Positions 3,285-63,668 are shown, counted from the stretch's first letter. The stretch is 64,000 nt of DNA from Blastocatellia bacterium (GCA_963765495.1 CAVXWP010000001.1:591898-655897), one strand, 5' to 3'. Numbers and translations: made by a program. Notes: generated from the letters alone by a model not told the origin.

Positions 3285-3393
3285 TGCGTGAATCGTGATG
3301 CGTGATGCGTGATTCCGAGACAGGCAATTATCTGTAACAAGTCTTCTGCCTCAAAGTCATGTATCACGATTCACGCATCACGATTCACGCGTC
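3285..3393. repeat. heptamer-tandem palindromic element (GCGTGAT type) between the HK and RR cistrons
   Basis: Left arm gatgcgtgaatcgtgatgcgtgatgcgtgattc, about 45 nt loop, right arm gtatcacgattcacgcatcacgattcacgcgtc (imperfect inverse). Confidence 0.75.
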
Positions 3394-5355
3394 GCGCATC
3401 ATTATCAGTGCTTCATCGCTGGCCTCGGTCGCCTGAGCTACAGCGGGCAGGCGCAAAGTGAAGGCGCTTCCACGTCCGGGCGCGCTTTCTACATCCACGC
3501 TTCCGCCGTGGGCATCAATTATGTGTTTTACCAGGCTCAACCCCAGGCCGTTCCCATGAATCTGGGCCGAGGCGGCCTCGCGGCCCCGATAAAACGGTTC
3601 AAAGATGTGAGGCAAATCCGAAGCCGTTATTCCCATTCCACGGTCTTCGATTGTGATTTCGACTTCCAGACCGCGTCTGCCCTGAACCGATTTCGCTCCA
3701 ATCCTTATCAAACGGCTTTCGCCCGCGTATTTCATGGCGTTGTTGAGCAGGTTTTGAATCGCTCGCAGAAGCGCCGCCCTGTCGGCTAAAACCGGAGGCA
3801 GATTCATCTCGATCTCTTTTTCCACATCGAAACCGCCTTCGCTTATCTGCATACGGCAATCGGCGAGCGCCGCGTCGATCAGGTCATTTGCGTCTGTCGG
3901 ATACAGATCATAAGTCTTCTGGCCCGATTGCGCGCCCGCAAAATCGAGCACCTGCTCGACCATCTTCGCAAGCCTCTGCCCTTCGCCCTTTATCAACGCG
4001 CCGTATCGTTTGATCTGCGCCCGGTCGTCGATCACCCCGTCGGCCAGATTTTCGCCCGCCGAACAGATAACGGCGAGCGGGGTCCGCAACTCGTGCGATA
4101 CGCCCGCGACAAATTCAATCTGCTGTCTTGCCAACCGCTGTGCGCGCCGCGTCGAGATTATTATCATCGCTACGCTCACCGCCAGCAGCAAAAGTATGCC
4201 GAAGCTCACGATCAAATTTCGATGACGCACGCCCGCGACCGCCAGATCGAGCGAGCCCGCGCGATGCTTTATCACAAGCTGCCAGACGCCGTCTTTATTC
4301 CCTGTAAGAGAGCCTTTCGCGGACGTCTCTCCCGGCGATTCACTGCGAATGCTGAACGTCATAATCTGCGACCTGTGCTCGCCCGCCGCCGCCGTTTCTC
4401 CGCGCATTCCCATCTCCGGCAACAGATCGCTGAACTCTTCGAACCTCAATCCGAAAAGCCCCGCCGTCTGGTCGCCCGCGACGGCTTCTTCATCAGAGAT
4501 CTTCGCATCGGATCTGTATATGATCTTCTTCGGGTCTTCGCGTTCCACAATCGCCACGTTGTAATCGACTGTATCGCCGCTTGCGAAGTACCTCCGGGCA
4601 AGCAGGGGAAGAAACTCCTGTTTTATGTAATCGAGATCGAGCGTGATAATGTTGTGGCCGGTGAGCGGGGCTATCTCGGGCAACCCCGCGCTTTCGCGAC
4701 TTTCGACGCGAGCGGTAAAGGTCTTTCTCTCCTTTTCGATGAAGCGATATTTCGGGAGCACGACGAAAGCCTTATCGGTCTTCTCTACAAGACGGTCGCC
4801 TGTAATCATTCGAAGTCCGAGTATGGGTGTGACGATGGCGGGCACATCTTCGGCTATAGTATTCAGGAGGTTTCGCGCAAGCATTGCCGGTTCGGGAAGT
4901 TCAGCCCGCTTCATATCGGCAAACGAGTCGCGCAGGGTCAGGAGTTCCGGCGGCCACTCGCGCGGCTTGAGCATAGCCTGCGCCCTGTCGAATTCGAGCA
5001 ATCGAGGCCCGCTCTTGTCGTCCTCTTCAACTACGAATACGCCTTTGACAAGCCTGGGATAAGGCGCGGTTTGAAACCACCTGTCATAACGTTTCGAATA
5101 ATCATCCCATCGGTTATCGCGCAAGTCGGCCGCATCCATCTGCAAACTCAAATATGCGCGGGCAAGTTCGCGGTCAAAATCGCGGCTGAATTGCGTAGCC
5201 CCGGCGCTGAGACTCTCCTGCATCCGCTCGCGCTCTGCCCGGCTGACCTGCCCGAGCCATCGGTATTGCAGGGTCGCAAACAGCGCGAGCAACAATACGA
5301 GCGAGGCGGCAAGCACAAGGGTCAGAGGCGGGCGTTTTTTCAACAGCTTCTTCAC
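3385..5355 (-). CDS. sensor histidine kinase with large N-terminal extracytoplasmic domain
   Basis: H-box AGVSHELRTPLAVI, N/G-box ...LLNNAMKYA...DRGMGI...GLGLSLV; N-terminal TM segment; GTG start. Confidence 0.85.
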   Translation of the reverse strand: MKKLLKKRPPLTLVLAASLVLLLALFATLQYRWLGQVSRAERERMQESLSAGATQFSRDFDRELARAYLSLQMDAADLRDNRWDDYSKRYDRWFQTAPYPRLVKGVFVVEEDDKSGPRLLEFDRAQAMLKPREWPPELLTLRDSFADMKRAELPEPAMLARNLLNTIAEDVPAIVTPILGLRMITGDRLVEKTDKAFVVLPKYRFIEKERKTFTARVESRESAGLPEIAPLTGHNIITLDLDYIKQEFLPLLARRYFASGDTVDYNVAIVEREDPKKIIYRSDAKISDEEAVAGDQTAGLFGLRFEEFSDLLPEMGMRGETAAAGEHRSQIMTFSIRSESPGETSAKGSLTGNKDGVWQLVIKHRAGSLDLAVAGVRHRNLIVSFGILLLLAVSVAMIIISTRRAQRLARQQIEFVAGVSHELRTPLAVICSAGENLADGVIDDRAQIKRYGALIKGEGQRLAKMVEQVLDFAGAQSGQKTYDLYPTDANDLIDAALADCRMQISEGGFDVEKEIEMNLPPVLADRAALLRAIQNLLNNAMKYAGESRLIRIGAKSVQGRRGLEVEITIEDRGMGITASDLPHIFEPFYRGREAASAQIHGNGLGLSLVKHIIDAHGGSVDVESAPGRGSAFTLRLPAVAQATEASDEALIMMRDA

Positions 5356-5405
5356 AACGGCGATTATAGCATCACTATTACGCCGCCGGATGGGGCGGCA
5401 AAAAA

Positions 5406-5424: not shown

Positions 5425-5522
5425 ACGTGAAGCGTGAAGCGTGATTCATGACTTCAGGTGGCAGGATTAAACCAACTTGCAAGCCTCGTAAATCACGAAT
5501 CACGCTTCACGCTTCACGCTTT
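5425..5522. repeat. heptamer-tandem palindromic element (GTGAAGC variant)
   Basis: acgtgaagcgtgaagcgtgattc ... aatcacgaatcacgcttcacgcttcacgct, lying in the divergent region between HK and terC. Confidence 0.75.
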
Positions 5523-9667: not shown

Positions 9668-11182
<1,515 letters not shown>

Positions 11183-11215
11183 ATGTTGTTTCAACAAAAC
11201 AGGAGGTTACTTTTG

Positions 11216-12115
11216 ATGAAGAGATTGGCATTACTGATTTTTGGATTCGTATTGTTAACGGCGACAGCAAACGGAGCCGATGAAAAATCTCGCGCCGAAG
11301 AGATACTCAATCAGACAAGGCAGGCCCTAGGCGGCGCCTCAAAGCTCAACGCAATCCACGCCCTCACGGCCTCGCTCGAATTCCGCCGCGTAATCGAGAT
11401 GAAAGACGAGTCGGGCTCCAGCCAGACTATGGACCAGTCGGGAGACATGGATCTCGATCTGCTTCTGCCCGACAAATACATGAGATCAGAGACTACTAAC
11501 CTGATGGGAGACGCTCGCGTGACGATCATTCGCGCTGTCAACGGAGACCAGACGTGGTCAGACACGCGCACGAGCGGGCCGGGCATGATCATCGTTCGTG
11601 AGGCGAAACCGCAGGGCGCAAACAGCGCAAACGCCGGTCTGCGAGGAGAGTTTTATCGCTATCTGGTCGCGTGGCTTCTCGCCGCGCCTGCCTCAGAACA
11701 ACTCGAATACAGCTACGCCGGGCAGGCCGAAGCCGACGACGGCAGCGCCGACGTGATAGACGTGAAGGGAGCGGATGGGTTTTCGCTCCGCCTCTTCCTC
11801 GACAGCCAGACGCATCTGCCGCTGATGTTGAGTTACAAGACACAAAGACCTCGCGGAGGGCGAATGATAAACCGTCGCATGACGCGCGAGCCTATGAGCG
11901 AAGAAAGAATAGCTAAAGAACATCAGGAGGGACCCGAGCCTGAAATGGTCGAAGCGGAAATTCAGGAGCGGTTCTCTGATTACCGCAAGGTAGACGGGCT
12001 GATGCTGCCCCATCACATCTCAAGAGCCACCGACGGCAAGACCGATGAAGAGTGGGAGATCAAACAATTCAAGATCAACCCCGACCTCAAACCCGAAAAG
12101 TTTGTGAAGAAGTAA
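11216..12115 (+). CDS. hypothetical exported protein (possible LolA-like fold)
   Basis: Signal peptide MKRLALLIFGFVLLTATANG; AGGAGG RBS 9 nt upstream. Confidence 0.5.
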   Translation: MKRLALLIFGFVLLTATANGADEKSRAEEILNQTRQALGGASKLNAIHALTASLEFRRVIEMKDESGSSQTMDQSGDMDLDLLLPDKYMRSETTNLMGDARVTIIRAVNGDQTWSDTRTSGPGMIIVREAKPQGANSANAGLRGEFYRYLVAWLLAAPASEQLEYSYAGQAEADDGSADVIDVKGADGFSLRLFLDSQTHLPLMLSYKTQRPRGGRMINRRMTREPMSEERIAKEHQEGPEPEMVEAEIQERFSDYRKVDGLMLPHHISRATDGKTDEEWEIKQFKINPDLKPEKFVKK

Positions 12116-12210
12116 CACGTGATGCGTGATGCGTGATGCGTGACCGGAAGCACCCGGCCCATCGAAGCCCGGTTGTAACTCTCACACATCACGTATCACG
12201 CATCACGTCC
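12115..12210. repeat. heptamer-tandem palindromic element (GCGTGAT x3)
   Basis: acacgtgatgcgtgatgcgtgatgcgtgac ... cacacatcacgtatcacgcatcacgtcc. It overlaps the false 5' extension of the downstream ORF. Confidence 0.75.
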
Positions 12211-12222: not shown

Positions 12223-14868
12223 ATGCAAAGACGGTTATCTTTTATCCGGTTGCTCAGCCTGATTCTCGTTCTCGCGTCCGTATTCAATCAGGCGTGGTCG
12301 CAGACCCGAACCCTCGATGGAAATTTGAGAGTCAGGGCGATTGATCCGCTAGGCGCGGCACTCGACCGGGCTCGCGTAAGAGTGGTGTCGGCCGAAGGGC
12401 GCGAAGAGGCGAGTGAAACCAATCAGAAAGGCGAGGCTTTCTTTCAAAAGCTTGCGCCCGGCCGGTACAAAATTATGGCCGAGGCCGACGGGTTCGAACC
12501 TGTACAGGTGAGCGATGTTACCGTAAAAGCAGGCAACAATCAGTTCGAGATTCGGCTTGAGGTGGCTCACGTAAAAGAAGAGATGGCCGTCTCTCGCGAC
12601 AACCGCGAAAAGCAGACCGACCCCAACGGCAACGCATTCTCGACCATTCTGACAGAAGATGATATTGCCAATCTGCCCGATGACCCGGAGGAGCTTTCAG
12701 CCGCCTTGCGCGATATGGCCGGACCGGGCGCAGGACCTCGGGACCCAACCATTCGTATCAATGGGTTTCGCGGAGGCAAGCTGCCTCCCAAGTCTCAGAT
12801 ACGCGAAATCCGATTTCGCATGAACCCCTACTCCGCCGAAAATCACGATGCCGATTTAGTAAGCATAGACGTATTCACAAAACCGGGAGTTGACCTCTGG
12901 CACGGCAATATGAATTTCGCCTTCAGAGACGAGTCCTTTAACGCGCGCAATCCTTTTGCCCCTTTTCGCGGACCTGAGCAAAATCGGCGCTACGGTTTTG
13001 ATCTTGGCGGGCCGCTCTGGCGCAACCACACATCGCTGTTTGTGAATGTCGAAGGGACATCTCTTTATGATTCCCAGACGATAGTGGCTGCGCTGCCCGA
13101 GGGCAATTTTTCAGACCTTATCCGCCGCCCCTCGCGCTCGCTTGACGGTTCGGCCCGAGTCGAGCACGCGCTGACAAAGACGCACAACCTGATGGTCGAA
13201 TATCAGCGCAACGCTCGTTTGCAAGAGAATCTCGGCGTAGGCGATTTCGACCTCGCCGACCGCGCTTACTCGACCGATGTGGTTGAAAATATTTTTCGCC
13301 TGTCCGATTCCGGTTTGCTCTCAAAGAGGATGATAAACGATTTCCGGTTTCAGGCTCGATGGCAGAGCCTCGATTCGCATTCGGCCACGAGTGCGCCCGC
13401 CATACTAGTGCTCGACGCCTTCAACCGAGGCGGCGCGCAGATAGAAAATCGTCGCCGCACGCGTGAGCTCGAACTTGCCGATAATGTCAACTTCGCCTCC
13501 GGCAAACATTCCATGAAGGCGGGCGCTTTGCTTGAAGCCGCAGGTTACACGAGCCGCGACCTTCAAAACACGGGCGGCACTTTCACATTCGCGAGCCTTG
13601 AAGATTTTCGCCTGGGTCGCCCGACCACTTTCACCGAGCGAGCCGGAGAGGCCGATGTGTCGTATTCCCAGTATCAGTTCGGCTGGTTCTTTCAAGACGA
13701 CTGGAAGCTGACCAAAGGTCTGACCCTGAGCCTGGGGCTCCGCCACGAAGTCCAGAACCATCTGGGCGATCGCAACAATTTTTCGCCGCGAATCGGGGTG
13801 GCGTGGTCTCCGTTCAAGAACGGGCAGACGACTTTTCGCGCGGGCGCAGGCGTATTTTACGACTGGTTTGCCGCCGAGACTTTCGAGCAGACCCTTCGCG
13901 TAGACGGCAAGCGCCAGCAGGAGATCGTCGTTCGCAATCCCGGGTTTCCCGATCCGTTTGGCGGCGGCGATTCGATAACGCTTCCGCCCGGTCGAATCAT
14001 GAGCGCGCCCGATCTCAAACTTCCCGCCGTTGAGCAGGCATCATTTATGGTAGAGCGCAGGCTGACAAAGACTCTGATGCTCAGAAGCGGCTACACCTAT
14101 CAATCGGGCGTAAATCTGCTGCGCGGCCACAACATCAACGCGCCGATTCCCGGGCTTGGGCGGCCCGACCCGACGGCGGGAAATATCATTCAGATAGAGT
14201 CAACGGCCCGGTCTACGCTGCACATGTTCAACGTAGGCGTGAGTCGCCTGACCAGAGGGTTCCATTTTAATTTGAACTATTCGCTATCGAAGGCTACAAA
14301 CGAGGCGGATTCGCCGCTTGCCTTGCCCGCAGACAATTTCGATCTGCGAGCCGAGCGCGGCCCCGCCCCCTGGGATGCGCGCCATCGCCTTTTCGGATTG
14401 GTGACCGCAAATCTTATAAAGGGATTCCGGCTGGGAGCTACGTTTACCGCGCGCTCGGCCACGCCTTACGACATCACAACCGGCTTTGACGACAACGGCG
14501 ACAGCGTAAGCAACGACCGGCCCGAGGGAGTTACGCGCAACAGCGCGCGGGGCTCTGCCCGGTGGGATATGGGAGCGCGTTTGAGCTGGGGGTTTGGTTT
14601 TGGCAAGCGGCCCGATACGGGAGCGCGTGGCGGGCGGCCAAAAATGATTCGCATACGTGACGGGGATGACGCGCTCGGCATGGTCAGTGGCGACCCGCAA
14701 GCGGTCGATAAGCGATGGCGCATGGATTTTTATATACAGGCCAACAATCTGTTCAATCACACAAACCTGATGAATTTCACCGGGGTAGAGACCTCGCCCT
14801 TCTTTGGGCAGGCGATTGCAGCCGCGCCCGGGCGCAGGATCGAAACCGGAATGAAGTTCAGCTTCTAG
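12223..14868 (+). CDS. TonB-dependent receptor-like outer-membrane protein with carboxypeptidase-regulatory-like N-domain
   Basis: Signal peptide MQRRLSFIRLLSLILVLASVF after AGGAG RBS; CarbopepD_reg-like domain; C-terminal ...GMKFSF beta-barrel terminus. The track start at 12133 is rejected as repeat-encoded. Confidence 0.8.
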   Translation: MQRRLSFIRLLSLILVLASVFNQAWSQTRTLDGNLRVRAIDPLGAALDRARVRVVSAEGREEASETNQKGEAFFQKLAPGRYKIMAEADGFEPVQVSDVTVKAGNNQFEIRLEVAHVKEEMAVSRDNREKQTDPNGNAFSTILTEDDIANLPDDPEELSAALRDMAGPGAGPRDPTIRINGFRGGKLPPKSQIREIRFRMNPYSAENHDADLVSIDVFTKPGVDLWHGNMNFAFRDESFNARNPFAPFRGPEQNRRYGFDLGGPLWRNHTSLFVNVEGTSLYDSQTIVAALPEGNFSDLIRRPSRSLDGSARVEHALTKTHNLMVEYQRNARLQENLGVGDFDLADRAYSTDVVENIFRLSDSGLLSKRMINDFRFQARWQSLDSHSATSAPAILVLDAFNRGGAQIENRRRTRELELADNVNFASGKHSMKAGALLEAAGYTSRDLQNTGGTFTFASLEDFRLGRPTTFTERAGEADVSYSQYQFGWFFQDDWKLTKGLTLSLGLRHEVQNHLGDRNNFSPRIGVAWSPFKNGQTTFRAGAGVFYDWFAAETFEQTLRVDGKRQQEIVVRNPGFPDPFGGGDSITLPPGRIMSAPDLKLPAVEQASFMVERRLTKTLMLRSGYTYQSGVNLLRGHNINAPIPGLGRPDPTAGNIIQIESTARSTLHMFNVGVSRLTRGFHFNLNYSLSKATNEADSPLALPADNFDLRAERGPAPWDARHRLFGLVTANLIKGFRLGATFTARSATPYDITTGFDDNGDSVSNDRPEGVTRNSARGSARWDMGARLSWGFGFGKRPDTGARGGRPKMIRIRDGDDALGMVSGDPQAVDKRWRMDFYIQANNLFNHTNLMNFTGVETSPFFGQAIAAAPGRRIETGMKFSF

Positions 14869-14930
14869 AATTTGAGATTTGAAATATGAGATTTGAGATT
14901 TGGGATTCCAGATTCCAGATTTCAGCATTC
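14868..14930. repeat. short direct-repeat cluster (GAGATTTGA / GATTCCA units) immediately 3' of the TonB-like gene
   Basis: gaatttgagatttgaaatatgagatttgagatttgggattccagattccagatttcag. Confidence 0.5.
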
Positions 14931-16957: not shown

Positions 16958-17006
16958 TCGGCGCGACCGCTTCAAGAAATTTCTTGAAGCGGTCGCGCCT
17001 TTTATC
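16958..17006. terminator. bidirectional intrinsic terminator (20-bp perfect stem flanked by an A-tract and a T-tract)
   Basis: gccaaaaaaatc-GGCGCGACCGCTTCAAGAAATTTCTTGAAGCGGTCGCGCC-ttttatc. Confidence 0.65.
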
Positions 17007-26518: not shown

Positions 26519-26584
26519 CAGCCACAGAGGCGCAAAGACACAGAGAAATAATTCATAAACTCTGTGGCTTTGCGCCTCTGTGGC
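26519..26584. repeat. CACAGAG-type palindromic element / mdh terminator
   Basis: cagccacagaggcgcaaagacacagag - loop - ctctgtggctttgcgcctctgtggc (one mismatch). Confidence 0.65.
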
Positions 26585-27656: not shown

Positions 27657-27747
27657 CTAAGGAGTGCCAATCGTAAATCGACATGCGAGTGCATAAGACT
27701 GCGCGACTCCTGGATTTGAGATCTGAGATCTAAGGAGATTTGAAGTT

Positions 27748-27903
27748 TCAGTGCTTCTCTTTGAATCTGTGACCGCAAGCCTTGCACTTGTAAAACTGCC
27801 CCACACGCTTCGGCGAGTAGGCGCGGGTCTTGCCGCAGTGAGGGCATTTCCTCTTAACACTTTTTATCGAGTCGAATATTACAGGCATCCAGATCGGGTT
27901 CAT
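27748..27903 (-). CDS. small C4 zinc-ribbon protein (51 aa), not in the ORF track
   Basis: Hand translation: MNPIWMPVIFDSIKSVKRKCPHCGKTRAYSPKRVGQFYKCKACGHRFKEKH; GGGGGAGG RBS about 8 nt upstream. Confidence 0.55.
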   Translation of the reverse strand: MNPIWMPVIFDSIKSVKRKCPHCGKTRAYSPKRVGQFYKCKACGHRFKEKH

Positions 27904-36168: not shown

Positions 36169-36296
36169 AGAAGAGGGACCAGGGGCCGACTGGCGCATGA
36201 TGCGCTATCGCGCGGCGCGGGGCTGGGGGCCAGTCTGCTGCAAGAGAAACAGTCATCTTAGCCCGGAGCCCCCGGCCCCTGACCCCCGGCCCCCGA

Positions 36297-37655: not shown

Positions 37656-37844
37656 GTACTTCTTCTCTTAAGTCCTTCAGGTCAGCGATTTGCGCGCTGA
37701 GGTAAACAACCATATTAAATCATCGGCTGAAGATTTGCCAGCATGGACTGTAGAGCCGAAGCACGTAACTTTTACTGATAGAGAAATGAGATAAACTCCA
37801 TAAGTCTGCTCAAGACACTATAAACCTTTTGAAGGAGAAGACTT

Positions 37845-39137: not shown

Positions 39138-39174
39138 CTTCTTTTTCTTCCAGTAATTCTTACGTGCGTCGCCG

Positions 39175-39677: not shown

Positions 39678-39725
39678 CACACAGAGACACAGAGATTTTT
39701 ATAATTCTTCTCTGTGTCTCTGTGC
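39678..39725. repeat. CACAGAG-type palindromic element
   Basis: cacacagagacacagaga - tttttataattctt - ctctgtgtctctgtg. Confidence 0.7.
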
Positions 39726-46055: not shown

Positions 46056-46156
46056 GGGATGAAAAGGACTGTCAGGATAGATTTCGATGATATGGTCAAT
46101 CCCATTAATCGGGATGTTTCCCCAGAGTCCTTTTCATCCCTCATCCCTCATCCCTT
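46047..46156. terminator. bidirectional terminator / heptamer-tandem palindrome (GGGATGA type) covering both convergent stop codons
   Basis: gagggatgagggatgaaaaggact - 55 nt - agtccttttcatccctcatccctcatccc. Confidence 0.65.
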
Positions 46157-47605
46157 CGTATGCGCTTGTATCCAGTCGCCTATAACTTTGAGGGCAAGCG
46201 GAGAGATCGTCTCTTCGATTGAGGAGTATTCGACGGGCGAGCCGGTTTTACTGGTCTGGAACAGATGATTGAGGTTTGGAAGTTTTACCAGAGTGTAATC
46301 GTTGTTGCCGCCGTCTTCGAGGGCCTTCGAGATAGCGGGCAGGTTTGCGCTGGGAGGAACCTGTAAATCCTTAGCGCCGTTTATCGCAAGGACCGGGCAT
46401 TTCACTTTCATGAGTGTGGGGCGCGGGTCGTAGGTGAGGAAGTATTGAAACCACGGCGTGAGAAGAGTCTTCAGATTGTTTTCAAGCGAGCTTTCGGAGA
46501 TGCCCATCTTCTTCTTTTCCTCTTCGGTCATTGTGGCCATATCGGCAAGCGTCTTTTCGCGTATCTTCTTTTCAGCGACTTTCAAATCCTTCTCCTGTTT
46601 CATCACCGAGAAGATTTTTTCCTGCGCCTGACGAGAGCGAGCTACGACCTCGTCGCTTGCGCCGTTTGCTTTTGCGATCAATTCGCCCTGAAGATAGAGA
46701 ATCTCTTCGCCGGTTATGCCGGGTCCGGCCATCAGAATTATGAACGCGACATCTGCCGATTTTACGGCCACAATCGGCGCGATTATTCCGCCTTCGCTAT
46801 GGCCCAGAATTCCAATCCGGTGGTTGTTTATCTCTTTACGGCTCTTGAGAAACTCTACGCCCGCAAGCGCGTCGCCCGCGAAATCCTGGCTTGTGGCTTC
46901 TCGGAAATTGCCGGTTGATTTGCCGACCCCGCGATCATCCACGCGAAGAACCGCTATCCCGAGGCGGGTCAGGTAATCAGCCAGCACGAGGAACGGGCGA
47001 TGTCCCAGCACGGTTTCGTTGCGGTCCTGAGGGCCGGAACCTGTGACGAGAAGGACCGCCGGAAACGGTCCCTGGGAGCGCGGCAAGGTCAACGTTCCGG
47101 CAAGTGTCACTCCGGCCTCCTTGTTTTCGTATGCCACCTCTTCTTCCAGATAGGGGTAAGGCTTTTTCGGTTCCTGCGGGCGGGCAAACTCAACCGCCTT
47201 GCCGCTTTCGGAAGCGAGTTTGCGTTCGAGCTTGAAGGGAAAGGTCTGACCACCCTGTGTGAAATTCCCTGAAATCGCTTTGCCGTCTTCGGCAAGCCTT
47301 CCGCTAAAGGACGGATCGCCGGGAACTCCCGGCATGACGAAAGATATTTGTTTGTCTTCGACGGTGATCTGGCCGAGCGCGAAGTCTTTAAGCCCCTGGG
47401 CGGGAACGGCTATGGTGCCTGTCCACGCGCCCTCTTTTTGAGCCAGGTCAACCAGGATGTCGAGCTTGAGGCTGGGAACCTCTATCTGACCTTCCCAGTG
47501 TCCGGCTGCTGCGGGCGGATTTTGCGCAAGAACGCCAAGCGGCGCTTGCCCTATTAATAAGATCAGGATCGCCAGTCGCGGTAAAAAGTGCTTCGTCATT
47601 CTCAA
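46148..47605 (-). CDS. secreted alpha/beta-fold hydrolase
   Basis: Signal peptide; GHSEG nucleophile elbow; dienelactone-hydrolase/S9-like C-terminal domain. Confidence 0.75.
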   Translation of the reverse strand: MRMTKHFLPRLAILILLIGQAPLGVLAQNPPAAAGHWEGQIEVPSLKLDILVDLAQKEGAWTGTIAVPAQGLKDFALGQITVEDKQISFVMPGVPGDPSFSGRLAEDGKAISGNFTQGGQTFPFKLERKLASESGKAVEFARPQEPKKPYPYLEEEVAYENKEAGVTLAGTLTLPRSQGPFPAVLLVTGSGPQDRNETVLGHRPFLVLADYLTRLGIAVLRVDDRGVGKSTGNFREATSQDFAGDALAGVEFLKSRKEINNHRIGILGHSEGGIIAPIVAVKSADVAFIILMAGPGITGEEILYLQGELIAKANGASDEVVARSRQAQEKIFSVMKQEKDLKVAEKKIREKTLADMATMTEEEKKKMGISESSLENNLKTLLTPWFQYFLTYDPRPTLMKVKCPVLAINGAKDLQVPPSANLPAISKALEDGGNNDYTLVKLPNLNHLFQTSKTGSPVEYSSIEETISPLALKVIGDWIQAHTKG

Positions 47606-48088
47606 CTCCTGTCATGGTTTGATTGCTGTCTTTAGATTTCTATCATCCGGGCTCGCCGATTGGTAGAGCGCGGCAGAGGTTTGAGTGTGACGCGAGCGGC
47701 TTAATAAGCTGAAAGGCGGTTGATCACAGAAGAGGTCGGGCTGCGCGCTAATTCTCCAATTAAACATTTTGCGTCTGCCGGACCATGTGCTATTATCCGT
47801 TCAGTTTCGCCACATCTGTATATATGGCGCAACCGTTTGGAGGCTGAATCGGGGCGGTTCGAGCAAGAAACGCTTGCCGGTAGAATTAACTCGATCAATC
47901 AAGCAGCCGCCTGGAAGTAATCTCGAATTTAATGGCTACGGTACCCCTCGCCAACTAATGATGAGTAAATCGGCGTGGCTTGCGGTTTGCCGGGCAAGTA
48001 ACCGCTGTTTTGAGTGCCCGAATTTTCAAAGTATAGTAGAATAATTGTGCCCGAAGTTAGAATTGGCCCGCGCGAGGAGTTTAAGAAG

Positions 48089-50095
<2,007 letters not shown>

Positions 50096-58140: not shown

Positions 58141-58297
58141 GGCAGTCTCGCCTTCTCTCAATCGACAACTTATGCCTCTGTTTGTCTGACAGCAGCCGTT
58201 GCCCTTTGACAAAGAGGGCTTGAATTTGACTCTGCCCGATGCGTGTTGTAGGATGACCCCCGATCAAAGCTCCGATTGTCAGAATTGGGAGCGTGCG

Positions 58298-60388
58298 ATG
58301 AAACACTGCCCCGCTTGCGAAAAGCTTTACGATGACCATCTCTTATTCTGCCCGTTTGACGGTCAATCGCTGTTTGTCCAGTTAGAGCCGGATCATTTGA
58401 TCGGCACAATTATCAGCAACAAATACAGAATCGAAGCCATCATTGATGAAGGCGGATTGAGCCACGTCTATAAAGCCACGCACATGCAGATGGATTACCC
58501 CGTAGCCATCAAGGTCCTCAACCCGGAACATACATCAAATGAAGTGCTTCTTGAATACTTTCGCCGAAAAGCACGCGCTGCGGCTCAGATTCAGCACCTC
58601 AACGCCATCGCCGTTACAGACTTCGGGCTGGACGCGGGCGCGGGGCTGGCTTACATGGTCATGGAACTGCTCGAAGGCCGCAGTCTGAGGAAAAAACTTC
58701 GGGAAGAGGGCATGCTCGGTTACGAAGAGACATATCTCATCGTTGAACAGACCTGCCTGGCTTTGCATTACGCGCACGCGAGAGACATCATTCATTGCGA
58801 TCTGAAACCGGAAAATATCTTCCTGCTCAAGTATCAGGACGGCTCGGAGCCGGTCAAGGTGCTCGATTTCGGAATCTACAGGCAACAGAGCGCCGCCGAC
58901 CTCCTGGCTCTCACTCAGCATGGGCTCCTTGCCGGAACACCCGATTACATGTCGCCTGAGCTTGGGCGCGGCGAATCCATAGATGCCCGCTCCGATATTT
59001 ACAGCCTCGGAGCTATCATCTACGAGATGCTGACGGGCTCTGTCGTGTTTGAAGCGCCTACGCCTGTAGCCGTCGTCGTCAAACACGCGAGCGACCCGCC
59101 CCGTCGCTTGCAGGAATTCCGGCCCGATATCCCTCCCCGTATAGAACAGATCGTGCTGCGCGCTCTCAGTAAGAGGCGGGAAGACCGTCAGGAAACGGTC
59201 GCGGAACTGGTTCACGAATTTGAGGAAGCGCTTTACACAAGCGGCATAGCGCCGAGGCGCACAGGCACAAAGGTGTTTCACTCTCCCTACCTTCCACCCT
59301 CCCCCGACACGCCGACAACCGCAGAGATAATCTCTGAGCCGGGCCGCCCGATCCCCACTCCCCAAAGCGAAGAGGTAGGCAGAACCGTCCCGCTCCAACA
59401 CGCTCAATTCGACAGGTCTCAGTTTGATATATCTCAATCGCCCAAAGCTTCCGGCTACGATGATTCAAGTGCCTCGATGCACAGGTCTACGCCTGCGCCT
59501 GCCTATAGCTCACAACAAAGCGCGCCGCAGAAGTTCAACACCCCTTCATATGCTCCCGAATCTGCGCGCGCGCCCGATGAGACAGCGACGAGGCTTACGG
59601 CAGCGAAAAAGTATTTGATACCTGTCGGGGCCATAGCCGCGATAGCCCTTTTGATTCTGGCAGCGGTGCTTCTGAATAAAAAGGGTACGGATGAAGGAGC
59701 TTCGTCGGAAACAGGCCGTGAAAGCACAACCACAGGCGCGCCGCCCGGAATGGTGAAGATCAAAGGATACCAGTTGCGCGTAGGCGGAGGCGGTTCCGCG
59801 CCGCCACAAGTTGTAAAGGTCCCGGATTACTTTTTCGATATTCAGGAAGTAACAAACGAAGAATATCAGAAGTTTGTCAAAGAGACGAAACACACACCGC
59901 CTCCTGATTGGCGAAATGATCAGTTCAAATCGGGCGCTGCCCGTCTGCCCGTAGTCAATGTTTCGTGGGAAGACGCAAAGGCCTACGCCGAGTGGGCGGG
60001 TAAGCGACTGCCGACCGAGACCGAGTGGGAATTTGCTGCGCGCGGAGAAACTCAGCAGCGTTACCCCTGGGGTGATGACTGGTCTCCTGATAATGCTAAC
60101 TTGAAGGAGAGCGGGATAGGAAAACCCGTGGCGGTTGGCTCTTACGCACAGGGCCGCAGCTGGTGCGGCGCGCGAGATTTGATAGGCAATGTGGCCGAGT
60201 GGGTTACAAGCGAAGGGCCTCTTTACCCTGGAACGGGAGTCCAAAGCGATCCGCGACTGAGGGTTTTTCGCGGCGGATCATACTTTCATTCTAAAGATGA
60301 AAACCCGACAACGAATCGCTGGGTGGAATTTGCCACACGAAAGCTGCCTTATGTCGGCTTCCGTTGCGCAAAGGGCGTGCCCCGATGA
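58298..60388 (+). CDS. Ser/Thr protein kinase-FGE-sulfatase domain fusion (paralogue of 48089..50095)
   Basis: CPACEKLYDDHLLFCPFDG; HCDLKPENIFL; C-terminal YAEWAGKRLPTETEWEFAARG...GNVAEWV...RGGSY. Confidence 0.85.
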   Translation: MKHCPACEKLYDDHLLFCPFDGQSLFVQLEPDHLIGTIISNKYRIEAIIDEGGLSHVYKATHMQMDYPVAIKVLNPEHTSNEVLLEYFRRKARAAAQIQHLNAIAVTDFGLDAGAGLAYMVMELLEGRSLRKKLREEGMLGYEETYLIVEQTCLALHYAHARDIIHCDLKPENIFLLKYQDGSEPVKVLDFGIYRQQSAADLLALTQHGLLAGTPDYMSPELGRGESIDARSDIYSLGAIIYEMLTGSVVFEAPTPVAVVVKHASDPPRRLQEFRPDIPPRIEQIVLRALSKRREDRQETVAELVHEFEEALYTSGIAPRRTGTKVFHSPYLPPSPDTPTTAEIISEPGRPIPTPQSEEVGRTVPLQHAQFDRSQFDISQSPKASGYDDSSASMHRSTPAPAYSSQQSAPQKFNTPSYAPESARAPDETATRLTAAKKYLIPVGAIAAIALLILAAVLLNKKGTDEGASSETGRESTTTGAPPGMVKIKGYQLRVGGGGSAPPQVVKVPDYFFDIQEVTNEEYQKFVKETKHTPPPDWRNDQFKSGAARLPVVNVSWEDAKAYAEWAGKRLPTETEWEFAARGETQQRYPWGDDWSPDNANLKESGIGKPVAVGSYAQGRSWCGARDLIGNVAEWVTSEGPLYPGTGVQSDPRLRVFRGGSYFHSKDENPTTNRWVEFATRKLPYVGFRCAKGVPR

Positions 60389-60472
60389 CAGCATCGCGCT
60401 CCGCGATGCTGTATCTCGAATCTCAAATTTCAGATCTCAGGTGTGTAATCAATCATCAATGAGAAAAAAGAG

Positions 60473-60554
60473 CGGAGGGGACAGGACTCGAACCTGCAAG
60501 GGCTTTCGCCCGGCGGTTTTCAAGACCGCTTCCTTACCATTAGGATACCCCTCC
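60473..60554 (-). tRNA. tRNA-Ser (anticodon UGA), class II with 15-nt variable arm
   Basis: Reverse complement reads GGAGGGG-TA-TCCT-AATGGTA-AGGA-A-GCGGT-CTTGAAA-ACCGC-CGGGCGAAAGCCCTT-GCAGG-TTCGAGT-CCTGT-CCCCTCC-G. Cloverleaf checked by hand; CCA not encoded. Confidence 0.85.
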
Positions 60555-60634: not shown

Positions 60635-60687
60635 AAAAATGAGAGTAAAATAAAAATGAGGGTAAAATAATGAGGACAAAAAAATAA
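60635..60687. repeat. AT-rich direct repeats AAAAATGAG(A/G)GTAAAATAA, about 2.5 copies, upstream of the tRNA promoter
   Basis: aaaaatgagagtaaaataaaaatgagggtaaaataatgaggacaaaaaaataa. Confidence 0.5.
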
Positions 60688-61080
60688 CGGAAGAGTCCCT
60701 CGGGCGAGTTTCCCTTCCGTTTTCTGCGTCCCTTCAATGGTTGTGTCCCTCAACCAGAGAAGAAGAGGAGGTTATTTGACAGCCACAATCCAAATTCCCT
60801 CATGGTTGCCGAGTTGCCCGCAATATATCAAACCCTGTCTCTCATAAAAACCCTGCTTACTCATAAAGCAAAAAAAAGTATCGGTTCGCGCAGGAACCGA
60901 ACTTCGGTTCTCTGAAGAAAAGCCGGAAAATATGTCTCCGAGCCTAGGCCGGTTTAAATTCGTCGAAAAGGATTAATCATAGTGAACCGGGGGCTGCTTA
61001 AACCTCTGTCTCGCCTGGATGTAGATATGATATGATGCGCCGAGCGTTTAGACCTCAGAGATTCAGGAGTGTAAGAAATC

Positions 61081-63537
61081 ATGGCTAAAACAAATGAGGG
61101 CGTGAAGTGGGGCGCGCTGATGCTGACTCTGATTTTGCTCGCAAGCTCGATCACTCTGCCAGTGGCGCGCGCGTCTGATTTCGGCGAGAAATCGACCTTT
61201 GCGGCTCGACAGGATTTCGACGAAGATTCGATCACTTTCGATAACCTGCTTCCGGCGGGCGGTTATTCGCTCTATATCGAAATGCGCAATGTAGGTCAGC
61301 AGGTAAAGTCGGGTGGATTTGCCGAGATTCTTGGTCCTCTTTTGCCTATAGTGAGCGGAGGCGCGCGCGAGGTAACCGAGCTTGTCGCCTTTGTCACCGA
61401 ACATGCCGACCAGTTATCCCGGTCGCGTATGATGGTTGCCGCAATGGCTGCTAACGCCTCGCTTCCGCAGGTGGTCTTTGCTCTTGAGATGAGTTCCCCC
61501 GACGGTGCAAAAGAATTCGAACCGGCGTTTCGAAGCTTTCTCTCATCTATGATGCATTCGCCGCCCGGCGTGCTCGCAGGCCCGCAGCCGTCGGCCGAGG
61601 AAGCTGCGCCTCAACCGAATCTTATTAAACGGGCGGGGAGCCTGCTTATAGTCAGCGACGCGCAGTTCTCTTTCAAATCGCTCAGGCGCGAAGACGGGAA
61701 GCTTCTCTCAAATGACCCAAACTTTCGCGCGGCGCGTGACCGCTTCTATTCCGAAATTCTATTCGTCTATTACGATATGGCCTTGAGCGAACGCGCAGCC
61801 AGCGAGCGATACGACTCCTATGACACAGCCAGCCGGACGGCCGAAATGCAGACCGAGATTCCACCGCCTGCCGAACAGACCGGGGATGCTTCGGTAGAGG
61901 CTCCCCGGTCCGAGCCGGTCCATCAAGCGCCCGCTGTGGTTGCAACTCCCGAAGTCAAAACTACCGAAACCGGAGAAGATGCAGGTGCTGCCGCCTCGGG
62001 CGCGCAAACCTCACCGCCGCGCAAGGGCCGGAGGCGGACGCGCGCCGCCGCGCAGCCAAAGGGTGCGGGCACAGGCAAGGTCGGGAACAAACCCGAAATA
62101 GTGGCTTCTGTAGGTGAGACACCGGCCCCGGACGCCACGGACAACACAAATCGCGGAGATCAATTTGAGGGGATGCTCTCTTTCCTGTTTAGCGGCAGTA
62201 TGAGAGAGGCAAGACCGCCTCAGTCCATAGCTCTTGCTCTCGGGTTGGATGGCGATGAATTGCTCATCCACGCTCTGCTGATAAATGAATTTGGAGCGCC
62301 CGCAAGTCCGCTTCCTTTCTTTACGTCTCTGGTTTCAGGTCCTCCATTGCCGCCCGAAGCCGCCGCGTATGCGCCCTCGGATACGGAAATATTTGTGAGC
62401 GCATCGCTCGACCTGGCGCGCAACTACATTTCGATCTTCGATATGGCCGGGGGGCCGAGTCAGTTGAACCTGAACCCGGGAAGAAAGCAGAAAGAGAAGA
62501 CCGAGACGTTTGAAATGAAGATAGCGGCCTTTGAGAAAAAGCATGGCTTCAAGGTTAAAGACGTATTGCTTGCCTCTCTTGGCAATGAGGTTGCGCTGAG
62601 TGCTCAGGGGTCGCTCTTTTCCGGGCGAAGCTCTCCTTCGGGTGTCTCCTCTTCTCAAATATCACAGGCAGGCCCGATTCTTTTTATCTCGGTTCAAGAC
62701 AAGGTCGCTTTGCAGCCAAAGCTTGTACCGATACTGGAATTACTGGGATTGAAGACGGCCAGTGAAAAAGGTGTGACCGAAAAGCACGGGGAGATTGAAA
62801 TCACCAGCTACAGCAAGCTCTCTTTCGCATTCATCAACAACTTTCTGTTGCTGGCTCAGAATGCCGCCTCCCTGCGCCGTGCGATAGAGGCTTATACCAC
62901 AAATCAAACGCTTGTAGGAGATCGCGATTTTCACAATTATATGCGCTGGCAGCCGCGCAATCTGCTCGCCCAGGTTTATGTTTCAAGCGCGATTATGAAG
63001 GGGCTGCTTGATGAAACCAAGAAGGCGGCCGAAGAGACCGATGATGAAACACGCGAATTTATCGAGCAGTTGAATTTCGCGCCTGAGCCGATCACATATG
63101 CGGCAGAGTCGGATATAATCGGGCCTCATTACGAATTGCATCTTCCAAAGAGCCTGATATTGATGATGATTGCGCAAATGACGACGGGCGCAAACCGGGG
63201 GCGAATTCCTGCAAATGAGGGATTGGTAAGATATATGTTTACGACGTTGCACGAGGCTGAGGTGCAATACCAGAGCCAGCACGGAAGATTTGCCAGCGCC
63301 GACGAGCTTGAGGAAGCCAAGATGTTCGATAAATCAGTCTTCGATGGGATGGGCTACAGCTTTGAACTGAGCGCGTCAGGCGGCAGGTATCAGGCTACGG
63401 CTGCGCCGCTCACCTACGGCAAGACGGGTCGCGTATCTTTCTATATTGATGAGACGGGCGTTATCAGAGAGGGCGATCACGAAGGAAAACCCGCGACCGG
63501 GGCAGATAAGGCGTCGTCGCAGACGGGCAAGAACTGA
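61081..63537 (+). CDS. large hypothetical secreted protein (818 aa) with Pro/Ala-rich low-complexity centre
   Basis: Signal peptide MAKTNEGVKWGALMLTLILLASS...; no family recognised. Confidence 0.55.
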   Translation: MAKTNEGVKWGALMLTLILLASSITLPVARASDFGEKSTFAARQDFDEDSITFDNLLPAGGYSLYIEMRNVGQQVKSGGFAEILGPLLPIVSGGAREVTELVAFVTEHADQLSRSRMMVAAMAANASLPQVVFALEMSSPDGAKEFEPAFRSFLSSMMHSPPGVLAGPQPSAEEAAPQPNLIKRAGSLLIVSDAQFSFKSLRREDGKLLSNDPNFRAARDRFYSEILFVYYDMALSERAASERYDSYDTASRTAEMQTEIPPPAEQTGDASVEAPRSEPVHQAPAVVATPEVKTTETGEDAGAAASGAQTSPPRKGRRRTRAAAQPKGAGTGKVGNKPEIVASVGETPAPDATDNTNRGDQFEGMLSFLFSGSMREARPPQSIALALGLDGDELLIHALLINEFGAPASPLPFFTSLVSGPPLPPEAAAYAPSDTEIFVSASLDLARNYISIFDMAGGPSQLNLNPGRKQKEKTETFEMKIAAFEKKHGFKVKDVLLASLGNEVALSAQGSLFSGRSSPSGVSSSQISQAGPILFISVQDKVALQPKLVPILELLGLKTASEKGVTEKHGEIEITSYSKLSFAFINNFLLLAQNAASLRRAIEAYTTNQTLVGDRDFHNYMRWQPRNLLAQVYVSSAIMKGLLDETKKAAEETDDETREFIEQLNFAPEPITYAAESDIIGPHYELHLPKSLILMMIAQMTTGANRGRIPANEGLVRYMFTTLHEAEVQYQSQHGRFASADELEEAKMFDKSVFDGMGYSFELSASGGRYQATAAPLTYGKTGRVSFYIDETGVIREGDHEGKPATGADKASSQTGKN

Positions 63538-63544
63538 ATAAAAA

Positions 63545-63668
63545 TCGTGATGCGGTCAATGATGCGTGATGCGTGATGCGTGATTTAGCAGACTATCAAG
63601 CTGTCTTAAACCTGCGGTCTGCCGTATAGTCACAAATCACTCTTCACGCATCATTGACCGCGTCACTG
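63545..63668. repeat. heptamer-tandem palindromic element (GCGTGAT x4; shares GATGCGTGATTTAGCAG and GTGAAGAGTGAT blocks with the 31642 element)
   Basis: aatcgtgatgcggtcaatgatgcgtgatgcgtgatgcgtgatttagcagac ... gtcacaaatcactcttcacgcatcattgaccgcgtcac. Confidence 0.75.

Follow-up and report, generated by a model that had tools for sequence, protein, structure and literature searches.

Genomic setting and architecture of the loci

The window, a stretch of 64,000 nucleotides from the genome of an uncultured, soil-type member of the Blastocatellia (Acidobacteriota), contains eight palindromic loci, each located within a few bases of the position assigned to it in a first-pass annotation made from the sequence alone. 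Locus 3285 (3283-3393) lies between a response-regulator gene, 2593-3273(-), and a histidine-kinase gene, 3385-5355(-), whose TGA stop codon is situated inside the right arm. Its (GCGTGAA/TCGTGAT/GCGTGAT)4 array at 3283-3313 faces an inverted array at 3363-3393 across a spacer of 49 nt (ΔG −65.5, z −8.6). Locus 5425 (5425-5522) occupies the divergent gap between the start of the kinase gene (5355) and a TerC gene (5575); here (GCGTGAA)2-3/GCGTGAT and its inverted array are separated by 46 nt (z −9.7). Locus 12115 (12115-12210) starts 1 nt past the TAA stop codon of the gene at 11183-12115(+) and ends 5 nt ahead of the AGGAG ribosome-binding site of a TonB-dependent receptor gene, 12223-14868(+), with (GCGTGAT)4 at 12117-12144 opposing (ATCACGY)3 at 12182-12208 (z −7.9).

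Two loci are built from units of 8 nt. At 26519-26584, located 47 nt 3' of the mdh stop codon (26631, minus strand), the arms CCACAGAG-GCGCAAAG-ACACAGAG comprise three such units and form a 25-bp stem of 96% complementarity, in which the diverged middle unit of one arm has its mirror image in the other (z −11.3). The hairpin at 39678-39725, 52 nt 3' of the stop codon of a 4-alpha-glucanotransferase gene, 39777-41303(-), carries (ACACAGAG)2 arms that pair perfectly over 16 bp and enclose a 13-nt AT-rich loop (z −7.7). The loops of both hairpins contain ATAATTC. The sole insertion sequence of the window is ISKra4-like (37757-39171); it has no link with locus 39678, as it ends 500 nt away and its 30-nt ends are unrelated to the hairpin.

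The largest locus is a composite palindrome of 317 nt (31642-31958; ΔG −174, z −15) between the convergent genes 30251-31633(+) and 31974-33683(-). Its outer GCGTGAW arms (31643-31670 and 31925-31950), with 259 nt between them, surround a sub-hairpin TTTAGCAGGC...GGTCTGCTAAA at 31668-31712, which recurs in locus 63545, and a nested palindrome at 31719-31908 with GCGGAT(T/G) arrays of its own at 31769-31855. Locus 46046 (46046-46156; ΔG −66.5, z −8.6) combines (TGAGGGA)2.4 at 46046-46062 with (TCATCCC)3 at 46134-46155 around an upper stem of unique sequence. A TGA of the array serves as the stop codon of each of the two convergent genes, encoding a glycogen debranching enzyme, 43827-46055(+), and a peptidase, 46148-47605(-), and the C-terminus of the debranching enzyme has retained its ancestral position. 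Locus 63545 (63545-63668; ΔG −67.9, z −9.6) starts 9 nt past the stop codon of the gene at 61081-63537(+). Its (GATGCGT)3.6 arrays have a stem of unique sequence (GTGATGCGGTCAAT) on the outside and a sub-hairpin, TTTAGCAGAC...GGTCTGC, on the inside; a minus-strand GAF-like gene, which extends beyond the window, stops at the TGA 63644-63646 in the right arm.

The gene contexts reported earlier were reproduced: loci 31642, 39678, 46046 and 63545 lie between convergent genes, loci 3285, 12115 and 26519 between genes of the same strand and locus 5425 between divergent genes. The architecture described as common to all requires three corrections: locus 26519 is not strictly tandem, locus 39678 has a period of 8 and locus 31642 is composite.

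Four unpaired period-7 arrays of the window had been overlooked in the first-pass annotation. A compound array, (GATTTGA)n followed by (GATTCCA)n, extends over 14870-14922 on the plus strand; it starts 2 nt past the TAG stop codon of the receptor gene 12223-14868(+), in the sense (TGA-bearing) orientation. A degenerate GATTTGA/GATCTGA array at 27713-27750 is located between a small zinc-ribbon reading frame, 27761-27889(-), and mdh (start at 27560, minus strand). The array (GCCCCCG)4 at 36268-36295 fills the 40-nt gap between the gene 34937-36256(-) and a MiaB-like gene, 36297-37655(-). The fourth, four ATCTCAA-like units at 60413-60439, is situated between a small hairpin past the stop codon of a kinase gene (60388) and the 3' end of a tRNA gene, 60473-60554(-), and is sense (TGA-bearing) relative to the tRNA transcript.

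Statistics and folding

The nine longest inverted repeats of the 64-kb window are all found inside the eight loci. Tandem arrays were listed with TRF, and seven exact arrays with a period of 7 and 2.6 or more copies occur in the window, against 0.01 in 100 dinucleotide shuffles (about 700-fold); no comparable excess over shuffles exists in the window for periods 4, 5 and 8-12. As RNA, each of the eight loci folds with −28 to −72 kcal/mol (z −7.7 to −11.3), an energy matched by no shuffle, and the stems of 16-40 bp can form on either strand. The claim that the loci are a real class of long imperfect hairpins, non-random and with arms made of heptamer arrays, is borne out. The window shows heptamer repeats to be abundant in Acidobacteria, with about one locus per 5 kb. 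All twelve arrays and hairpins are intergenic, overlapping coding sequence only at last codons or the stop codon.

Position and orientation relative to genes

Seven of the eight hairpins directly follow a stop codon, and the loci are therefore mainly gene-3'-end elements. The earlier statement that they are "not simply terminators" is accordingly correct in that they are not canonical intrinsic terminators, but it understates their placement at gene 3' ends. Canonical intrinsic terminators, which consist of a short G+C-rich stem with a loop of 3-8 nt followed by a U-tract, were rejected because a stem-plus-T-run scan of 39 kb (the window outside 20001-45000, with five of the eight loci) flagged none of the heptamer hairpins, and terminator-like sites in this sequence showed no excess over shuffles (25 versus 22.2; 24 versus 22.6). 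The loops of the hairpins measure 8-60 nt, and TTTT follows locus 5425 only.

The arms are also oriented. In all window loci the arm that is read first is the G-rich, usually stop-bearing array, and in six of the eight hairpins this arm closes all three frames read inward and almost none read outward. A period of 7 is not divisible by 3, so that three TGA-bearing copies suffice to stop all three frames, and in at least four genes an array TGA serves as the stop codon. Among unrelated units, 11 of 12 have more G than C in the 5' arm. The genes next to the hairpins have no common function.

Relationships among the loci

The eight loci do not constitute a single sequence family; they are built from three or more unrelated units, and their spacers, too, are for the most part unrelated. 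The longer blocks reported to be common to loci 31642 and 63545 are real, and the similarity reaches locus 5425 when this is read on the minus strand. In an anchored ungapped test, the spacers of these three loci are identical at 22-26 of 40 positions (p ≤ 0.0005), and the same test detected no similarity of this kind for loci 3285, 12115 and 46046. Local alignment (+2/−3) of the heptamer-masked elements gave nothing significant, this scoring being too strict at an identity of about 60%. Loci 5425, 31642 and 63545 thus share a homologous spacer, so that in at least one sub-family the entire element has been copied. Conserved cores were also found within Oscillochloris and within the GGCTTGA loci of other genomes. 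A search of metagenome contigs for the 31642/63545 core (GTGATTTAGCAGRC-N18-28-GGTCTGC) returned two matches, both array-less and attributable to chance.

Occurrence in other genomes

Among the matches listed, (GCGTGAT)n…(ATCACGC)n in this same order occurs in about 23 assemblies, which represent about ten phyla. In these pairs the forward array precedes the inverted one (F..R) in 38 cases and follows it (R..F) in 3; the independent unit GGCTTGA gave 5-6 versus 0, so that both units together amount to 44 versus 3. About one third of the arrays have an inverted partner, far more than expected by chance; the stems are long and have hardly any interruptions.

The position relative to genes was likewise recovered: at 30 of 38 pairs (79%) a long open frame ends in, or at most 40 nt before, an arm. 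An open-frame end is found at 45-47% of array pairs per side and at about 12% of random positions, counting frames of at least 100 codons at loci picked by the array pattern itself among the matches listed. Unpaired arrays lie sense-downstream of open frames in 63 cases and antisense in 21, and the GGCTTGA replicate yielded 11 versus 4. GCGTGAT was rejected as a uniquely favoured unit, since in viral contigs the composition-matched (GGCTTGA)3 is equally abundant (15 stretches versus 13 for (GCGTGAT)3); (GTGCGAT)3 and (GAGTCGT)3 occur there in 1 and 0 stretches, respectively.

The two arms of a pair often differ strongly in copy number, e.g. 16 versus 2 or 2 versus 12, and these unequal numbers point indirectly to independent slippage in each arm. 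Unit variants are mirrored in both arms in 20 cases (5.8 expected) and confined to one arm in 65. As a sign of selection for pairing the mirrored variants are weak, because consensus units peculiar to each genome confound the excess and the 65 unpaired variants outweigh it.

A check for presence or absence in relatives (closest orthologues: debranching enzyme 69% and Mdh 92% identical) showed that syntenic relatives are without the hairpins of the window. No hairpins follow the orthologous genes in L160 and L161. In L124, a (GTTACTG)3..(CAGTAAC)3 hairpin lies between genes that in the window are separated by only 10 nt. At 92% protein identity, the gene neighbourhood of mdh is no longer syntenic; only L124 shares a block, and ordinary hairpins lie downstream of the mdh genes of the relatives.

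Comparison with known repeats

The architecture is not new in kind but represents a known type, here in a Blastocatellia genome; no published description was found for Acidobacteria or Chloroflexota, in agreement with the first-pass assumption that the elements are uncharacterised in this lineage. According to summaries of Mrazek, Guo and Shah 2007 (PMC4679880, PMC4692102), no long simple repeats are more over-represented in bacteria than those with a 7-nt period, a specificity reproduced in the window, and their origin and function were not established as of 2015 (PMC4692102, PMC4679880). As in these LSSRs, for which polymerase slippage was proposed, the 7-nt units of the window form tandem arrays longer than chance allows (7 versus 0.01) with a strong non-coding bias (12 of 12 in intergenic gaps). 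As summarised in the two papers, however, that survey dealt with direct arrays, and the summaries name neither hairpin pairing nor a gene-end polarity.

Closest are the GGGAATC repeats that Rehm et al. (2015, PMC4692102) described from Xanthomonas campestris and X. axonopodis, where inverted heptamer arrays form convergent pairs. Both systems consist of two nearby 7-nt arrays on opposite strands that converge, the G-rich array being the first; they are intergenic, near the ends of open reading frames ("downstream on the coding strand") and rare between divergent genes, and their neighbouring genes have no common function. Array lengths vary among relatives in Xanthomonas and may do so here. 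In contrast to Xanthomonas, GCGTGAW, GGGATGA and CACAGAG mostly lack the four G-tracts required for a quadruplex: GCGTGAT, GCGTGAA and CACAGAG contain no G3, and GGGATGA offers one G3 in each of 2-3 copies per arm. Furthermore, most units described here are stop-bearing, some copies share a unique spacer core and the host is an acidobacterium. GGGAATC contains no stop codon, yet the Xanthomonas pairs display the same polarity (PMC4692102).

Direct TAACTGA repeats of marine Beggiatoaceae, some Cyanobacteria and Bacteroidetes (MacGregor 2015, PMC4679880) are similar in being a stop-bearing heptamer in 2-6 copies that is intergenic and present in distant phyla by an unexplained transmission. They differ in arrangement (169 direct sets versus one indirect) and in position, just upstream of start codons (PMC4679880).

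REP, BIME and REPIN elements are likewise imperfect palindromes scattered over intergenic DNA, in many cases at the 3' ends of genes and within operons, with conserved-sequence sub-families and nested or paired occurrence. REP/REPIN systems comprise tens to hundreds of copies of one consensus, and a RAYT (Y1/HUH) transposase gene is typically flanked by the repeats. The elements of the window differ by their variable-number tandem arms and by the lack of a single consensus across the eight loci. The GTAG/CGTC head is absent from their ends (GATGCGTG, CGTGAAGC, ACGTGATG, GCCACAGA, CACACAGA, TGAGGGAT, GTGATGCG), and no RAYT/Y1_Tnp gene is present among the approximately 40 open reading frames of the window. 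A target-site duplication is not visible in the flanks of any copy, neither at the window loci nor at the pairs of other genomes. Hence, the proposed dispersed REP/MITE-like family is supported by the spacer shared among three loci and by the nested palindrome in locus 31642, but the features that define REP elements and MITEs were not found in the window.

Cyanobacterial STRR heptamers, in which small dispersed repeats are embedded, were reportedly described by Mazel in 1990 and Elhai in 2008; they are said to be lineage-restricted, non-coding and tandem, with nested small structured elements, and resemble the present arrays in these respects. Their units (CCCCAGT, TTGGTCA, CAACAGT) are different and mostly direct. 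Eukaryotic foldback transposons have long terminal inverted repeats made of short tandem repeats and are kilobase-scale and transposase-associated; they are alike in the foldback hairpin build, whereas evidence of such a mechanism was not found here. Searched against Rfam 15, the window yielded only a tRNA above the gathering score and nothing for the hairpins at E ≤ 1, whose scores are generic (MIR2600, 33.6 against a gathering score of 98; snoR125, 22 against 100). For Nostoc, only "a few paired repeats" are mentioned (PMC4692102).

Origin and possible function

We consider, with about even confidence, that the loci are heptanucleotide LSSRs arranged as convergent inverted pairs, which form slippage-shaped palindromes at gene 3' ends and may have a REP-like role in RNA. 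Small palindromic 3'-end elements would arise locally or be copied to new sites in the manner of REP elements, after which slippage during replication would add and remove 7-nt units in each arm independently. Selection would then retain only orientations that are harmless beside a coding region, that is, arms that stop the three frames ahead of the stem. By analogy with REP/BIME, the RNA stem could act as a factor-independent bidirectional 3' hairpin distinct from a U-tract terminator, which may block 3'-to-5' exonucleases and damp read-through between neighbouring transcription units.

This proposal meets several difficulties. Stems of 25-40 bp would serve RNase III as substrates, and transcripts might lose stability instead of being protected; for locus 5425, between divergent gene starts, a 3'-end role makes no sense. 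The stop-codon filter cannot wholly explain the polarity, because the CACAGAG hairpins and GGGAATC are stop-less and the GTTACTG hairpin of L124 carries its TAA on the far arm. The excess of G over C in the 5' arm fits the polarity better than stop codons do, but is itself without explanation. Finally, slippage alone explains neither the inverted partner array nor the recurrence of GCGTGAT in about ten phyla.

Tentatively, the arrays may instead be a neutral or selfish mutational by-product of slippage-prone units and strand template switching, a possibility that we rate as somewhat doubtful. Position and polarity would then merely reflect where arrays are tolerated, namely in short 3' intergenic gaps and in orientations that do not extend reading frames. 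The arrays are indeed lineage-specific and missing from syntenic relatives, many unrelated units coexist within one genome and single heptamer words occur at background frequency. Moreover, the very unequal copy numbers of the arms and the 65 one-arm variants against 20 mirrored ones imply that perfect pairing is not maintained, and experiments on the Xanthomonas pairs found no function (PMC4692102). A mere by-product is difficult to reconcile with the frequency of inverted partners and the long, near-continuous stems, or with the recurrence of GCGTGAT in about ten phyla among the matches listed. Since stop-less units show the polarity as well, coding tolerance cannot be the only filter.

Rather unlikely is an origin as non-autonomous foldback, MITE or REPIN mobile elements, whose arrays would be reiterated sites for a transposase encoded elsewhere. 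A fixed inward/outward polarity is expected of terminal repeats, and the spacer core in three copies of the window, the cores in Oscillochloris and in the GGCTTGA genomes, the nested arrangement of locus 31642 and the presence/absence differences among relatives are all consistent with mobility. Against this stand the missing target-site duplications, the lack of a RAYT/Y1 or other matching transposase in the window, where the ends of the ISKra4-like element are unrelated, and the absence of the shared core from the metagenome contigs searched. In addition, at least three unrelated units coexist in 64 kb, the spacers of loci 3285, 12115 and 46046 are unrelated, and the unpaired arrays, too, follow the gene-end polarity.

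It appears improbable that the arrays are reiterated sites at which a nucleoid protein, a post-transcriptional regulator or some other sequence-specific factor binds DNA or RNA, with the hairpin being secondary. The occurrence of GCGTGAT in many phyla with unrelated spacers and the sense orientation of unpaired arrays past genes would agree with it, and a similar proposal exists for the TAACTGA repeats of Beggiatoaceae (PMC4679880). However, several unrelated units coexist in one genome, the control unit GGCTTGA is as abundant in viral contigs, so that GCGTGAT is not unique, and neither a common function of the neighbouring genes nor a candidate factor was identified. Chi-like recombination signals for rapid repair of a break at the palindrome centre are hardly credible: the G-rich strand on each side of an F..R pair runs 5'-to-3' towards the centre, which allows some speculation, and the known Chi sites of AddAB are G-rich words of 5-7 nt, but the units differ among loci, and a genome-wide word of Chi or HIP1 type was rejected because unit words outside arrays occur at background level with no clear skew (GCGTGAT and rotations, 8 versus 4 by strand, about 5.5 expected on each).

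Returning to the heptanucleotide pairs as slippage-shaped 3'-end palindromes, a more far-reaching variant, to which we give little credence, is that stop-bearing arrays such as (GCGTGAT)n represent a cross-phylum 3'-end signal, laid down or read by a conserved putative factor. If true, such a factor, a polymerase or repair activity or an RNA/DNA-binding protein, would explain why period 7 alone occurs, the presence of GCGTGAT, next to unrelated spacers, in about ten phyla and the orientation of the unpaired arrays relative to the gene ahead of them. In practical terms, heptamer hairpins break short-read assemblies, as in contig L001, which terminates within one, and can displace called stop codons. 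Any explanation has to meet three regularities, the strict period of 7, the inward polarity of 44 to 3 and the tight association with stop codons in the sense orientation, which includes the closing of all three frames, and these turn a vaguely defined repeat into testable predictions.

Anatomy of the heptamer hairpins

The eight palindromic loci proposed in the first-pass annotation, named here by their start positions (3285, 5425, 12115, 26519, 31642, 39678, 46046 and 63545), are confirmed by sequence inspection and account for the nine longest matches when the window is scanned for inverted repeats without bias. The scan delimits arms of 25–43 nt, which are 78–96% complementary and lie 8–52 nt apart; the outer arms of 31642 are separated by 259 nt. 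At most loci the arms are indeed built of tandem heptamers, with a period of 7 in Tandem Repeats Finder, but 39678 has a period of 8, each arm of 26519 comprises three 8-nt units, of which the middle one has diverged and is mirrored in the other arm, and 31642 is nested. Exact period-7 arrays of at least 2.6 copies occur seven times in the window versus 0.01 times in 100 dinucleotide-preserving shuffles. The same comparison gives no excess of exact arrays at periods 4, 5 and 8–12, and at period 6 an excess of two-copy arrays only, as expected from coding sequence. Folded as RNA, each locus is predicted to form one long, nearly continuous stem (−28 to −72 kcal/mol, z −7.7 to −11.3), and the whole 31642 composite folds at −174 kcal/mol (z −15). 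Four additional period-7 arrays (14870, 27713, 36268 and 60413) have no inverted partner. With a density of about one locus per 5 kb, heptamer repeats are a real and abundant feature of the window.

Two further kinds of tandem repeat are present. An array of a 13-nt unit (CCCAATCGGTTCC, 6.2 copies, 91% matches) at 1125–1205 occupies the convergent gap between the gene at 663–1076(+) and the ATP-sulfurylase gene at 1255–2493(−), so that it is placed like the heptamer hairpins but has a different period. A-rich repeats of 17/14 nt (AAAAATGAGAGTAAAAT) and 19 nt at 60635–60685 and 60830–60867 lie in the 690-nt gap between a tRNA gene (60473–60554, minus strand) and a DUF3352 gene (61081–63537).

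Relationship between the loci

For comparison of spacers, elements were anchored at the 5′ array end and the next 40 nt were compared ungapped, with 2000 shuffles. Loci 31642, 63545 and, on its minus strand, 5425 agree in their spacers at 22–26 of 40 positions (p ≤ 0.0005 each) and have TTTAGCAGRC…GGTCTGC and AGTCACRAATCA in common; therefore at least one sub-family has been copied whole. The long blocks noted earlier in 31642 and 63545 are real, and the likeness reaches 5425. Locus 31642 is such an element plus about 205 nt belonging to a second palindrome, which is inserted between sub-hairpin and right arm; no further copy of this insert was found. A search of metagenome contigs did not find the shared core. 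Spacers at 3285, 12115 and 46046 show no relationship, and 26519 and 39678 have the unit CACAGAG and the loop heptamer ATAATTC in common. A dispersed family, as originally suggested, can thus be recognized in at least one sub-family copied as a unit, but the eight loci do not form one family.

Gene context and turnover in relatives

The closest malate dehydrogenases (84–92% identity) and debranching enzymes (about 65–69%) are labelled Blastocatellia, and the gene content is consistent with Acidobacteriota: a TonB-dependent receptor carries a CarboxypepD_reg domain, and FGE-sulfatase domains are joined to Ser/Thr kinases. Two of these fusions, 48014–50095 and 58199–60388, form a paralogue pair 8 kb apart that combines the kinase with a formylglycine-generating-enzyme-like domain.

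According to the gene map, which is backed by Pfam matches, four hairpins (31642, 39678, 46046 and 63545) are flanked by convergent genes, three (3285, 12115 and 26519) by same-strand genes and one (5425) by divergent genes. The array itself supplies the TGA stop of at least four genes: the kinase gene 3385–5355, both neighbours of 46046 and, at the right window edge, a GAF-like gene. The debranching enzyme adjoining 46046 ends in …KTTTEG, compared with …KTTE or …KTAE in relatives; since this C-terminal position is ancestral, the array starts at the native stop without truncating the enzyme. At the other end of this gene, the mechanical open frames of the alpha-amylase-family protein (42071–44017) and the debranching enzyme (43827–46055) overlap by 191 nt. 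The overlap is only 4 nt in two syntenic relatives (L160 and L161), so that the debranching-enzyme gene probably starts near 44010. Between mdh, the malate dehydrogenase gene, and a SASA-esterase gene, a 42-codon frame (27761–27889, minus strand) encodes a CxxC…CxxC zinc-ribbon peptide (MPVIFDSIKSVKRKCPHCGKTRAYSPKRVGQFYKCKACGHRFKEKH), whose TGA stop adjoins the 27713 array.

The loci had been described as not simply terminators. They do not fit canonical terminators: none was flagged in the 39 kb scanned, which covers five of the eight loci, and there is no excess of stems followed by T-runs. However, in seven of the eight a stop codon directly precedes the hairpin. Just one site in the window is convincing as a classical bidirectional intrinsic terminator: a perfect 40-nt palindrome at 16960–16999, with a stem of 18–20 bp, a 4-nt loop and T-runs on both sides. 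No Rfam family matches the hairpins.

Comparison with relatives reveals differences in presence and absence. In the Blastocatellia contig L124 a hairpin separates two genes whose counterparts in the window lie 10 nt apart, and in L160 and L161 the debranching-enzyme and glucanotransferase genes are followed by neither arrays nor comparable hairpins. Ordinary hairpins follow mdh in relatives. In L126, from Blastocatellia AA13-like contigs, a 16-nt unit (TGAAGACTGCTTAC-NN) is directly repeated, in two copies, 3′ of mdh (11010–11045), where there is no heptamer hairpin.

Distribution across genomes

A scan of one genome per species, in which loci were chosen by the pattern itself, yields at least 120 (GCGTGAT)3 stretches. 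Among the listed matches, about ten phyla are represented; most stretches are in Chloroflexota and Verrucomicrobiota, and other hosts include Vulcanimicrobiota, Desulfobacterales, Blastocatellia, Nitrospirota, Calditrichota and Gemmatimonadota. The surrounding ~0.8 Mb contains 402 period-7 arrays. GCGTGAT is not a uniquely favoured unit, as viral contigs contain 13 (GCGTGAT)3 stretches and 15 of the composition-matched (GGCTTGA)3 (two other permutations: 1 and 0). Blastocatellia relatives that had been retrieved independently of any repeat have hairpins made of other units, GTTACTG (L124) and AAGTGAC (L128).

Hairpin spacers are unrelated across lineages and at times conserved inside one genome, as with CGGTCAGG…CCCGGTCACGG in four Oscillochloris copies. 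In other phyla, the spacers of GCGTGAT hairpins frequently hold additional short tandem arrays built of different 7–8-nt units (ACACAAAG, ACGCCAAG, GCAAGT-N and TGTAACT; contigs L061 5480–5520, L064 7680–7715, L113 1655–1700 (Chloroflexia SMAG_U8985); L014 1300–1350; L067 440–490), and those genomes therefore build compound arrays. A Logan contig (L001, ERR11718635_1024950), 100% identical to window positions 60788–63585, breaks off right within the (GATGCGT)n array of 63545, suggesting that such repeats break short-read assemblies.

Polarity and frame closure

Neighbouring GCGTGAT arrays are predominantly convergent, with the G-rich array first, as (GCGTGAT)n…(ATCACGC)n: 38 pairs versus 3 in reverse order among the listed matches, 35 individually listed convergent pairs representing about 23 assemblies. 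The independent GGCTTGA-fetched set (5 versus 0) and viral GCGTGAT loci (1 versus 0) bring this to 44 versus 3. Of 12 units with no relation to GCGTGAT, 11 likewise have more G than C in the arm that is read first. Gene ends were approximated by open frames of at least 100 codons, not annotated genes. Such a frame ends in an arm or at most 40 nt before one in 30 of the 38 listed pairs, and per pair side the proportion is 45–47%, compared with about 12% at random positions. Counted in symmetric windows with read-through allowed, the 130 unpaired GCGTGAT arrays among the listed matches lie just 3′ of a long open frame in sense orientation 63 times and in antisense 21 times (GGCTTGA replicate: 11 versus 4). 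Polarity is tied to the gene, beyond the palindrome alone.

As 7 cannot be divided evenly by 3, a stop-containing unit closes all three frames once it is present in three copies. The arm entered first does so in six of the eight window hairpins, with almost no stops reading outward (39 frames closed inward versus 6 outward). The two CACAGAG hairpins, 26519 and 39678, contain no stops. A stop-codon filter fails to account for polarity in such stop-free units, including GGGAATC of Xanthomonas, and in GTTACTG of L124; the rule that holds more generally is the excess of G over C in the arm read first.

Possible origin and role

These features of anatomy, enrichment, position, polarity, frame closure and turnover, with the one copied sub-family, might be combined in a single account, to which we give about even credence. 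Small palindromic 3′-end elements would arise locally or by copying, and their 7-nt stem units would grow and shrink by slippage separately in each arm. This would explain why copy number is frequently very unequal between arms (16 versus 2 or 2 versus 12 among the listed pairs). Persistence would be limited to orientations compatible with the adjoining coding region. By analogy with REP/BIME elements, the transcribed stem may shield upstream mRNA and curb read-through between transcription units in both directions.

The main rival, which seems possible but less probable, takes the hairpins to be functionless and the rules to mirror merely where such DNA is tolerated. Unit variants are mirrored in 20 cases versus 5.8 in a re-paired control; since 65 variants are unpaired, pairing is not strictly maintained. 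It is unlikely that transposase-driven foldback or MITE elements gave rise to the hairpins: polarity and shared cores would fit, but the diversity of units and the gene-end polarity of unpaired arrays are at odds with this, as is the absence of target-site duplications. Defining marks of the REP/MITE-like identity proposed earlier were not found: the loci lack GTAG/CGTC heads, the window contains no RAYT gene and its sole insertion sequence has unrelated ends. This apparently intact element (37757–39171) carries 30-nt terminal inverted repeats (37757–37786 and 39142–39171, 77% complementary); its frame 37845–39137(+) hits NCBIfam NF033572, an ISKra4 family transposase model (E 1.6e-43, below the curated cut-off), and gives a weak match to Pfam UPF0236. 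A Chi-like or HIP1-like word is unsupported, because unit words outside arrays are neither over-represented nor clearly strand-skewed in the window.

The kind of repeat is already known, the STRR heptamers of cyanobacteria being older still than the examples that follow. Mrázek et al. 2007, as cited in PMC4692102 and PMC4679880, name heptanucleotides as the class of long simple-sequence repeats whose over-representation is strongest in many bacteria and suggest polymerase slippage as the cause. For two Xanthomonas genomes, Rehm et al. 2015 (PMC4692102) report about 185 GGGAATC arrays apiece, mainly “downstream on the coding strand” of ORFs and seldom between divergent genes, differing in length among species and with no function found. 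Nearby arrays on opposite strands form inverted pairs there too, in convergent order. TAACTGA direct repeats occur in Beggiatoaceae, Cyanobacteria and Bacteroidetes (MacGregor 2015, PMC4679880). The literature found holds no description of the GCGTGAT unit or of this lineage: our search returned no paper with GCGTGAT arrays, nor any that deals with heptamer repeats in Acidobacteria or Chloroflexota. The window hairpins belong to a known kind and are not categorically new. Without yet answering it, the orientation and gene-end rules sharpen the old question posed by heptamer repeats.
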